A DNA stretch of 32,000 bases from Schaalia odontolytica (GCF_005696695.1 NZ_CP040006.1:150001-182000), one strand, 5' to 3'; positions 25,615-26,844 are shown, counted from the stretch's first letter. Made by a program: numbers and translations. Notes: a model not told the origin generated them from the letters alone.

Positions 25615-25728
25615 AATTTCGCACGTAATTCCCCTGAGGGATCTTCGGATTACCCCGAGAAAACCGCATGATTTCAACGTTTAGAATTCAAATGTTGAAA
25701 GAGCAGTGGGGGAATTGCATGCGAAATT
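25615..25728. mobile_element. TIR element copy 2 (114 bp)
   Basis: The ends are aatttcgcacgtaattcccc and ggggaattgcatgcgaaatt. The interior (gaaaaccgcatgatttcaa, ttcaaatgttgaaagag) is shared with copy 3. The right end overlaps the stop codon of the DUF559-type ORF. Confidence 0.8.
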
Positions 25729-26665
25729 AGTGTTGAGGGTGATAACTAGGCAGGTATCCGCTCAGGATGTCGAGGAAGGCGGCGTTCTTCACTGCGTCGC
25801 GCGTGTCTTCCATTCCAGTGTCGGGTAGGAGGCGACGGAGGGCCTGTACCGATACCGGGACCTCTCGCGCGAAGTTGCCATTCATGACGTCGTCATAGGT
25901 GAATCGAAGGACGACGTATCCGCGCCGTAAAAGTTCTCGATCGCGTTTGAGGTCCTTCTCGCGCTGCTCTTTCGATGAGTGGAAGGCCCATCCATCCACC
26001 TCGATGATGATGAAGCCGAGAATGATCATGTCGACCTCGCCGACTCCTTCAATCCAGACCCCGACCTGCGGTGTCAGCCCCATATCAATGAGCTGCAAAC
26101 GTGCAACTGTTTCGAGGATCGATCGGGCACGCTCCGACGATAGGGAGAGAGCTTCTTTGAGGTGAGGCAGTCGGCTGCCGGTTGGTGGAATAGTGAGCGT
26201 CGAGACGTCGTAGAGGCCGCGATTGCGCGCGGCATCAAGCATGGGCAGCGAGACCTTGAGTGGCATGCAGACGAGCACTCGCTCCAAGACTGTCCCGATG
26301 CTCGCTACATGTGTGCGTTCTTCTTCTTTACTCAGGACCGGCTCCCAGTGGACGCACACATCGTCGAAACGGCGGAGCTTTGAGTAGTGCATTCCTCGGC
26401 TGTGTCTGACGGACAAATGCGTGCGCTGTGGGAGTTCCCCAGTGGCGACTGGTAGGTCATAGAACTTCGCTGCACTCACACACGAGAGGCAAGCGTTGTA
26501 TACGAAAGCGCGTACCTGATCTAACGTGTACCTGGTGTGGTCGTAGATCCAACCGCGGTAGTGACTGATGCCAGCTGGCAGCGTTGAAGGAGTGAGGTCT
26601 GCGTGGCGCAGGCTCGATAGTTTGGTGATGCCTTGTCGTTTACGTAGCTCTTCGTTGAGATCCAT
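25727..26665 (-). CDS. DUF559/Vsr-like endonuclease-fold domain protein with an AbiEi-like N-terminal region (312 aa); low-GC gene
   Basis: The C-terminus VDMIILGFIIIEVDGWAFHSSKEQREKDLKRDRELLRRGYVVLRFTYDDV matches my recollection of the DUF559 pattern. GC is about 52-58% in sampled lines, against about 68% in neighbouring genes. Confidence 0.75.
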   Translation of the reverse strand: MDLNEELRKRQGITKLSSLRHADLTPSTLPAGISHYRGWIYDHTRYTLDQVRAFVYNACLSCVSAAKFYDLPVATGELPQRTHLSVRHSRGMHYSKLRRFDDVCVHWEPVLSKEEERTHVASIGTVLERVLVCMPLKVSLPMLDAARNRGLYDVSTLTIPPTGSRLPHLKEALSLSSERARSILETVARLQLIDMGLTPQVGVWIEGVGEVDMIILGFIIIEVDGWAFHSSKEQREKDLKRDRELLRRGYVVLRFTYDDVMNGNFAREVPVSVQALRRLLPDTGMEDTRDAVKNAAFLDILSGYLPSYHPQH

Positions 26666-26730
26666 GCATAGATCGTGCTACTTTGTGGCGCTTTGTGTGA
26701 TCTGTTTGAAAAATCTGTGGATAACTAAGA

Positions 26731-26844
26731 AATTTCGCATGCAATTCCCTGCCGAGGTCTATTTGGTACCTCGTGAAAACCGCATGATTTCAATGATCTG
26801 AGTTCAAATCTTGAAAGAGGGGTGGGGGAATTGCATGCGAAATT
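26731..26844. mobile_element. TIR element copy 3 (114 bp), same orientation as copy 2
   Basis: The ends are aatttcgcatgcaattccc and ggggaattgcatgcgaaatt. The interior is gaaaaccgcatgatttcaa...ttcaaatcttgaaagag. Confidence 0.8.

Follow-up and report, generated by a model that had tools for sequence, protein, structure and literature searches.

The nuclease gene and its flanking hairpin elements

We analyzed a stretch of 32,000 nucleotides of Schaalia odontolytica DNA (NZ_CP040006.1:150001-182000; hereafter called the window, with positions counted from its first nucleotide), in which a gene for a putative nuclease is enclosed by two copies of a hairpin-forming repeat element. The nuclease gene (25727-26665, minus strand) was called as an open reading frame (ORF) of 312 amino acids with an ATG start, and its product is predicted to consist of an AbiEi-like winged helix followed by a C-terminal DUF559 nuclease domain. 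One copy of the element, 114 bp long and bounded by terminal inverted repeats (TIRs), lies downstream of the gene (25615-25728, plus strand), between the convergent genes for the nuclease and for a low-molecular-weight protein tyrosine phosphatase (LMW-PTP). The other copy, which was identified from the sequence and by repeat search, is located upstream of the gene (26731-26844, plus strand), has the same length and orientation, and carries perfect 19-bp TIRs. The 19-nt inverted repeat at the ends of each element reads AATTTCGCATGCAATTCCC / GGGAATTGCATGCGAAATT, and a search with it returned five matches in the window, where 100 shuffles gave an expectation of 0.00. The stop codon of the nuclease gene (TAA, minus strand, 25729-25727) shares the last 2 nt of the downstream element, and the upstream element ends 66 nt from the ATG, leaving a spacer of 65 nt (26666-26730, minus strand) that contains a conserved box, TTATCCACAG. 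Both flanking copies fold strongly as single-stranded DNA, with −23.9 kcal/mol for the downstream copy (z = −4.8 versus shuffles) and −29.9 kcal/mol for the upstream copy (z = −7.4). A third, solo copy of the element family (8065-8177, minus strand; fold z = −5.5) shares the TIRs of the flanking copies, has diverged in its interior, and occupies an intergenic position between genes for an ABC-class ATPase and an FtsX-type permease.

The GC content is 0.49-0.59 across positions 25550-26899, compared to 0.67-0.77 on either side (300-nt windows), and the 312-codon ORF, at about 57% GC, is set in DNA of roughly 70% GC. The neighboring genes are the LMW-PTP gene, which ends at 25584, and dipZ, a gene with DsbD_TM and thioredoxin-like domains that ends at 26929; both assignments were confirmed with Pfam. 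The initial annotation of this locus had thus correctly described a low-GC ORF between these two neighbors, with 114-bp copies in the same orientation on both sides and a stop codon overlapping one of them. It had further proposed that the whole is a composite unit that moves or has moved. Judged from the window alone, two copies around one gene are not very improbable; the flanking is beyond chance because relatives show the same repeat-gene-repeat layout, as described below. The 65-nt spacer showed no consensus sigma-70 promoter, and the elements showed no canonical intrinsic terminator and lack the U-tract signature of such terminators. Neither a transposase nor an integrase was found in the window or in the fetched loci of relatives.

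The nuclease protein and its family

The Pfam family DUF559 (PF04480) matched the window protein with 28.7 bits, above the gathering score of 20.6, over residues 219-262. The family REase_MTES_1575 (PF18741) matched with 28.5 bits, below its gathering cutoff of 38.2, and the matches of both families are confined to residues about 205-262. AbiEi_4 (PF13338) gave no Pfam match at E ≤ 1 for the window protein itself. Among 56 aligned relatives, AbiEi_4 was present in 28, DUF559 in 50 and MTES_1575 in 55 (E ≤ 0.01). In the alignment of these 56 sequences, the invariant columns of the nuclease part are D212, E222, D224, H229 and R241, and those of the middle domain are C62, H83, H106, C133 and D144. 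An AlphaFold model of the window protein (predicted local distance difference test score 80) was matched by Foldseek to the AbiEi antitoxin 6y8q (probability 0.99, E 1.2e-3) and to the nuclease domain of I-Bth0305I, 3r3p (probability 1.0, TM 0.74), a further best fold match being Rv2827c (1zel). The family profile, when compared to PDB sequences, matched 3hrl (7e-8) and 3r3p. At the level of family and fold, the predicted architecture therefore holds: an AbiEi-like winged helix, a middle domain and a C-terminal PD-(D/E)XK nuclease of the Vsr/EDxHD type. The N- and C-terminal parts are the combination that the initial annotation had put forward. In the profile searches with the window protein itself, its DUF559 assignment stood, and Vsr was absent from both the Pfam and the NCBIfam matches.

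NCBIfam contained no match for the nuclease protein, and PADLOC returned one weak homing-endonuclease match (E 0.004) and no AbiE match. No gene for an AbiEii nucleotidyltransferase is adjacent, the neighbors being dipZ and the LMW-PTP gene, and no methylase gene, the Dcm-type partner of Vsr, occurs in the neighborhood. An exhaustive search of representatives at 50% identity identified 2220 related clusters at E ≤ 0.001, most of them with proteins of about 280-300 amino acids that align over residues ~50-265 of the window protein. DUF559/AbiEi_4 proteins form a large, uncharacterised family. No member of it turned up in IMG/VR viral contigs or GenBank phages. A search of plasmids with the window protein gave a 415-kb record of Actinomyces oris as its sole match, and the protein of one relative (L065) showed a weak partial match to a DUF559 gene on a Thioalkalivibrio plasmid.

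Age and fixity of the unit in the Schaalia odontolytica group

Of 22 species-level relatives from the S. odontolytica group that could be evaluated, 19 have the nuclease gene at the dipZ/LMW-PTP site, including lineages in which DipZ is only 74-78% identical, and every metagenomic variant that was looked up has the gene between dipZ and the phosphatase gene. The best 120 homologues listed are about 310-316 amino acids long and 84-95% identical. In all gene-carrying relatives the element offsets are equal, even where the DipZ protein has diverged by up to ~25%. The gene has a GC content of about 58% (57-61%) and a GC content at third codon positions (GC3) of about 71% (66-79%) in all 18 loci in which these were measured, as compared to 69-72% and about 90-93% for the neighboring genes, which bears out the compositional deviation suspected at the outset. 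The ratio of nonsynonymous to synonymous substitution rates (dN/dS) of the gene, relative to the window copy, is 0.11-0.25, similar to that of the housekeeping neighbors. Because the gene occupies the same site in 19 of 22 relatives, has a low GC content everywhere and shows these dN/dS values, the unit is old, resident and vertically inherited, kept under purifying selection and occasionally lost. The position of the module between dipZ and LMW-PTP predates the diversification of the group, and we infer that the low GC content is its long-term composition and no sign of recent import. A recent horizontal acquisition is rejected because of the conserved synteny and the clade-wide low GC content. 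The initial annotation had reasoned that presence at the same locus in all relatives with a normal composition would speak against its model; the shared locus was indeed found, and the composition is low in GC throughout. The gene and its neighbors have diverged to degrees that agree only loosely (in L017, one of the fetched relative loci, which we number L, DipZ is 97% identical and the gene 86%), and therefore allelic exchange of the gene by recombination is suggested by these sequence comparisons.

Three relatives (L025, L029 and L037) lack the gene. In L025, dipZ and the phosphatase gene are separated by 87 bp, and the breakpoints are not at the element ends: the difference from filled sites extends past the element ends by 32 nt on one side and 22 nt on the other, and there is no target-site duplication. 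The comparison with an empty site, which had been suggested as a check on mobility, therefore gives no support to it. Half an element is left in L029, and neither gene nor element is present in L037. The contigs of L029 and L037 (10-14 kb) are without the gene and without intact elements, and the L025 contig is too short for this assessment. At the site itself, L029 (7400-7560) and L037 (3620-3700) carry a different palindromic repeat with GGATAGGTTA / TAACCTATCC units.

Several further variants of the locus were observed. Many relatives possess an extra gene of 257-261 amino acids between dipZ and the nuclease gene, which is absent from the window (L011 4767-5540, L014 4693-5472, L020 4748-5521, and also L027, L028, L032, L034, L035, L038, L039 and L040). 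The extra gene has an N-terminal hydrophobic segment and about 65% GC, its 257-aa product had no family match, and it is bounded by a further element copy everywhere except in L028, so that some relatives have the order element-gene-element-gene-element. In S. odontolytica UMB0018 (L026, 8608-9171), the match to the nuclease gene covers only 188 amino acids at 99% identity, with normally spaced flanking elements; possible explanations are a frameshift, a pseudogene or a sequencing error. In some strains (L017 5806-5822, corresponding to 26845-26929 of the window), dipZ lacks its usual terminator hairpin and is followed, 12 nt past its stop codon, by the start of the upstream element, which may form the end of the dipZ transcript there. 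The same locus, with DipZ 92-97% identical, was also found in assemblies titled Xylanimonas cellulosilytica 352_XCEL (L023), Sanguibacter keddieii 250_SKED (L032) and 'uncultured Xylanimonas' (L041), which judging from these sequences are probably mislabelled Schaalia assemblies.

Solo copies of the element in the Schaalia group

An element profile built from the copies was used in nhmmer searches (E ≤ 1e-3) over 455 kb of fetched, largely orthologous Schaalia-group loci, a set that includes many re-samplings of the same 1-3 kb site. This gave 150 matches with 104 distinct full-length sequences. Some Schaalia strains contain up to seven element copies per 15 kb. The solo copies are intergenic, occur in either orientation, and their presence varies between strains. 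Among 98 aligned copies, three positions of the 14-bp terminal stem show paired double changes (at one of them, 63 copies have CG and 30 have UA). No gathering-score match to Rfam was obtained for the window and 10 related loci, only chance-level matches appeared for the region at E ≤ 1, and the Schaalia element had no match in the plasmid collection.

The same layout in other lineages

The nearest homologues outside the Schaalia clade are 39-47% identical, and three different genomic contexts are represented among them. Immediately upstream of each gene is a related TIR element, with ends that read ...CGCACACAGTTTC; a downstream element is present as well in L049 and L050. The copies on the two sides share 99% identity in L049, where the stop codon is inside the repeat. 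L049 provides a further observation, namely a hairpin element of this lineage inside the frame of the hrpA helicase gene (11976-12105), translated in frame without an internal stop.

We scanned metagenomes with a subfamily profile, which yielded 80 loci from 22 lineages in 144 kb of sequence. Flanking elements in lineages other than Schaalia are hairpins of about 90-160 bp. When a stringent hairpin was defined by arms of 18 nt with at most one mismatch and an overall length of 80-200 nt, 18 such hairpins were found in the 144 kb, and 17 of them are located within 350 nt upstream or 200 nt downstream of a family gene; the lone exception is a Schaalia solo copy. The flank zones make up ~9% of the sequence, and a rough binomial estimate puts the probability of this enrichment by chance at ~1e-16, with the reservation that the two flanks of one gene are non-independent. 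Looser hairpin criteria bring in more lineages. The repeat ends differ in sequence per gene lineage. A 13-nt central core, AACCGC[AG]TGATT[CT], is common to Schaalia and four Actinomyces-type lineages, and 9 of its 10 occurrences are beside the gene. Many outer ends of the TIRs begin with (G)TGTCCA(C/A)A. In some cases, closely related genes (83-95% identity) have different neighbors on one side.

The repeat-gene-repeat module is therefore a real conserved unit. In many lineages of the Actinomycetaceae it accompanies this subfamily of genes, the chromosomal site varying, and the layout is a property of the gene family rather than of the present locus. The assumption of the initial annotation that gene and flanking elements form one unit is thereby placed on firmer ground than originally proposed, since the same layout occurs at other loci and in other genera.

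The module is also present in a finished isolate genome, that of A. oris WVU627, where the gene is annotated as hypothetical only. Further searches did not place the second family-gene match and the two remaining element matches of the A. oris record. The record concerned is the 415-kb 'plasmid unnamed1' (NZ_CP116225.1; L137-L139), which encodes groEL, dnaK-grpE, cysS, clpB and ispF and looks like chromosomal DNA or a chromid, not an ordinary plasmid. It also contains a second family of hairpins of 156-157 nt with ends GTGTCACGATTGGCGACTTTTC (71327-71482 and 143741-143897; L138, L139); these two solo copies are alike only at their ends, and a partner gene was not located.

A conserved box upstream of the gene

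The box TTATCCACAG of the window is positioned at 26715-26724 (minus strand), and its end is 49 nt from the ATG. A box of this kind, usually GTT(A/G)TCCACAG, was found 48-82 nt (mostly 49-52 nt) upstream of the start codon in 14 of the 22 lineages, with a background frequency of 0.073 per kb per strand. The variants TTATCCACAG or TTGTCCACAG are present in the window and in L049, L050, L051, L053, L065, L124, L128, L122, L132 and L136, and L053 has two box copies in tandem. The DnaA-box consensus is TTATCCACA in E. coli and TTGTCCACA in actinobacteria, and the upstream box matches this consensus. DnaA and the product of the gene itself are candidate binders of the box.

Other features of the window

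Two more pairs of intergenic repeats, unrelated to the TIR element, occur on either side of the gene for the FtsX-type permease. The members of the first pair (7310-7459 and 11872-12021) are 96% identical, and those of the second (7947-8043 and 12396-12492) are 86% identical. Furthermore, three alike gene starts (ATGAGCGA(C/T)CC...) are present at 3033-3241, 4382-4497 and 4937-5090, each leading into repeats with an 18-nt period in which a TACGG unit recurs; the sequence suggests that these are starts of paralogous low-complexity proteins.

Interpretation of the module

As a whole, these observations are best explained by an old, conserved module of hairpin, box, gene and hairpin, in which the nuclease acts on its own flanking repeats; we give this explanation an even chance. 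The winged helix would bind the box and the related TGTCCACAG-type repeat ends, and this binding would both set the expression of the protein and let the protein recognise the repeats. The nuclease domain would then cut at or near the hairpin or a cruciform. The single-copy gene and the hairpin repeats would thus be a pair of driver and passengers, following the logic of repetitive extragenic palindromic (REP) doublets (REPINs) and their REP-associated tyrosine transposases (RAYTs) with an unrelated enzyme. A more specific version holds that the module is a second, independently evolved replicator of the REPIN-RAYT type, in which the AbiEi-like winged helix and the DUF559 nuclease recognise, cut and propagate or maintain their own lineage-specific hairpins, and the DnaA-box-like GTT(A/G)TCCACAG serves as operator and as ancestral repeat end. 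We put this version forward tentatively, as it is more apt to fail than to hold. There is a fair chance that the system is mechanistically new.

Several points weigh against a nuclease that acts on its own repeats. Binding and cutting of the repeats by the protein are purely what we infer. In eight lineages represented by a single locus, some from JGI sample contigs and not from the oral ERZ/BNJ assemblies, no stringent hairpin was found. Simple joint inheritance of gene and flanks could account in part for the lineage-specific TIRs. In some lineages the two flanking copies have the same orientation, and in another they are inverted relative to each other, a mix that no simple mechanism predicts. 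The co-absence of gene and elements is based on three short contigs. Three polymorphic solo sites, compared in the filled and the empty state, showed neither a target-site duplication nor a clean insertion boundary, the filled sites having 40-50 nt more on either side. Finally, solo copies were seen in quantity only in the Schaalia group, and other lineages show just the two flanking copies within ±3 kb, so that the dispersal of passenger repeats is seen in this one group.

The strongest of the alternatives, which we nevertheless regard as unlikely, is that the hairpins act in cis only. They would then be co-inherited regulatory or insulating elements, such as terminators, stabilisers of mRNA ends or carriers of operators, around a tightly controlled and potentially toxic nuclease gene, with no mobility and with the action of the protein limited to autoregulation. 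The positions of the elements are fixed relative to the start and stop codons, the elements fold strongly, and the conserved upstream box fits the operator of an AbiEi-type autoregulator; in L017, moreover, the element lies 12 nt past the dipZ stop codon, where other strains have a terminator hairpin. Such a role does not account for solo copies at many unrelated intergenic sites, in either orientation and varying between strains. The missing U-tract speaks against terminators in particular, and a conserved central core combined with freely changing TIRs goes beyond the needs of a plain terminator.

It is improbable, in our view, that spacer and gene form a free-standing cassette of the homing type, in which the nuclease cuts a resident hairpin, repair or insertion duplicates the element, and solo elements represent empty targets. 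This idea draws on the nuclease domain, which is closest to the homing endonuclease I-Bth0305I, and on the weak PADLOC match. It also fits the direct and nearly identical flanking copies in L049 (99%), L124 (97%) and L128 (93%), the junctions exactly at the element ends with a stop codon overlapping the repeat, and the closely related genes with different neighbors on one side. However, the single intact element that it predicts between dipZ and the phosphatase gene was seen at no locus, one lineage has its copies in inverted orientation, the unit has stayed in place throughout the Schaalia group, and no second gene copy at another solo element was seen.

Recent arrival and current movement as a composite transposon are not supported. 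The composite model that follows from the initial annotation, in which two miniature inverted-repeat transposable elements (MITEs), mobilised by an unrelated transposase supplied in trans, carry the DUF559 gene as a passenger, must be considered quite improbable. Two TIR elements of the same family do bracket the gene, the element family is dispersed and polymorphic in the Schaalia group, and in some relatives a second gene (257-259 aa) is bracketed as well. Yet the bracket recurs around homologues whose elements have unrelated TIRs and are rare elsewhere, which is not predicted for a passenger. No target duplication flanks the unit, no transposase or integrase is encoded nearby, and the locus, with the same site and offsets in 19 of 22 relatives, is fixed, with the gene under purifying selection. 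Coincidence, that is, the insertion of abundant intergenic repeats on both sides of a horizontally acquired AT-richer gene, is effectively excluded: some Schaalia strains do have 6-7 copies per 15 kb, so that housekeeping genes like dipZ are flanked too, but 17 of 18 stringent hairpins adjoin a family gene (144 kb, 22 lineages), core and box are held in common, and the offsets are identical across species.

Comparison with known systems

REPIN-RAYT systems consist of REP doublets that form hairpins and a single-copy REP-associated tyrosine transposase (PMC3116915, PMC3337134, bioRxiv 10.1101/2021.07.10.451892). The present module resembles them in that hairpin-forming repeat doublets of ~100 nt stand on both sides of a single-copy gene, in that short non-coding copies of this repeat are scattered elsewhere (for the module, in Schaalia), in that gene lineages are paired with distinct repeat sequences, and in its mainly vertical inheritance and long persistence. 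In the Schaalia group only one gene locus was seen, as judged from locus contexts rather than from copy counts per genome. The enzyme differs, being a winged helix joined to a PD-(D/E)XK nuclease here and an HUH/Y1 transposase of the IS200/IS605 type there. Further differences are that the host phylum is Actinomycetota, that the elements have long TIRs and a conserved central core, that the dispersal of solo copies is known from one clade, and that the module is known from sequence alone.

MITEs such as the Correia elements of Neisseria and the pneumococcal RUP are 100-160 bp long, have TIRs, are intergenic in either orientation and variable between strains, and may overlap the end of a gene and provide its stop codon. 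The present elements are likewise short, non-coding TIR elements with multiple dispersed, strain-variable copies, one of which overlaps a gene end with its stop codon. Unlike MITEs, they are tied to one gene family, and at the sites compared no target-site duplication could be delimited. We know of no parent insertion sequence for them.

With the AbiE type IV toxin-antitoxin systems (AbiEi 6y8q; Rv2827c 1zel) the protein shares, by fold, the N-terminal winged helix and the adjoining domain, and the gene has a conserved upstream box as expected of an autoregulator. It differs in having no AbiEii partner gene and in its C-terminus, which is predicted to be a nuclease domain. The fold of the nuclease core and its E-x-D...H...D-type residues are those of I-Bth0305I and other EDxHD homing endonucleases and of Vsr (3r3p, 1cw0), and a clade 'VSR, DUF559, DUF2726' has been described (PMC3424549). 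In contrast to I-Bth0305I and Vsr, however, the gene is not in an intron or intein, there is no Dcm methylase partner, and the DNA-binding part is different.

Integron cassettes form arrays of single genes with imperfect palindromic attC sites of ~60-140 bp that often overlap the stop codon. The order element-gene-element-gene-element in some relatives and the palindromic element over the stop codon are reminiscent of such arrays. No integrase is encoded in the window or the loci, though, the elements are dispersed over the chromosome in both orientations, and no GTTRRRY core was evident by eye in the element ends (AATTTCGCA...). The identity as an integron cassette was rejected because there is no integrase, and an attC-type core is likewise missing by eye.

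A survey of predicted programmed-inversion targets found DUF559 proteins to be 14-fold enriched among genes overlapped by inverted repeats (PMC9881135). The main text of that survey mentions DUF559 once, as a row of the enrichment table, and describes no flanking hairpin module, box or lineage-specific repeat there. Repeat copies that overlap the 3' end of the gene would yield such an enrichment, and the repeat-box-gene-repeat module would account for the flagging of DUF559 genes in that survey. Searches of the literature on DUF559, AbiEi_4, Actinomyces MITEs and actinobacterial REPINs turned up no description of the module.

Significance of the module

For genome annotation, the present locus teaches that a low GC content together with flanking repeats is here no evidence of recent transfer. 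The module offers the DUF559/AbiEi_4 family concrete DNA partners, namely the box and the repeat ends. If the partnership between enzyme and repeats is real, vertically inherited pairs of this kind would extend from the HUH transposases of Gram-negative bacteria to another class of enzyme in the Actinomycetota. If the proposed action on these repeats is true, it would provide a function for a very large and so far uncharacterised actinobacterial family.

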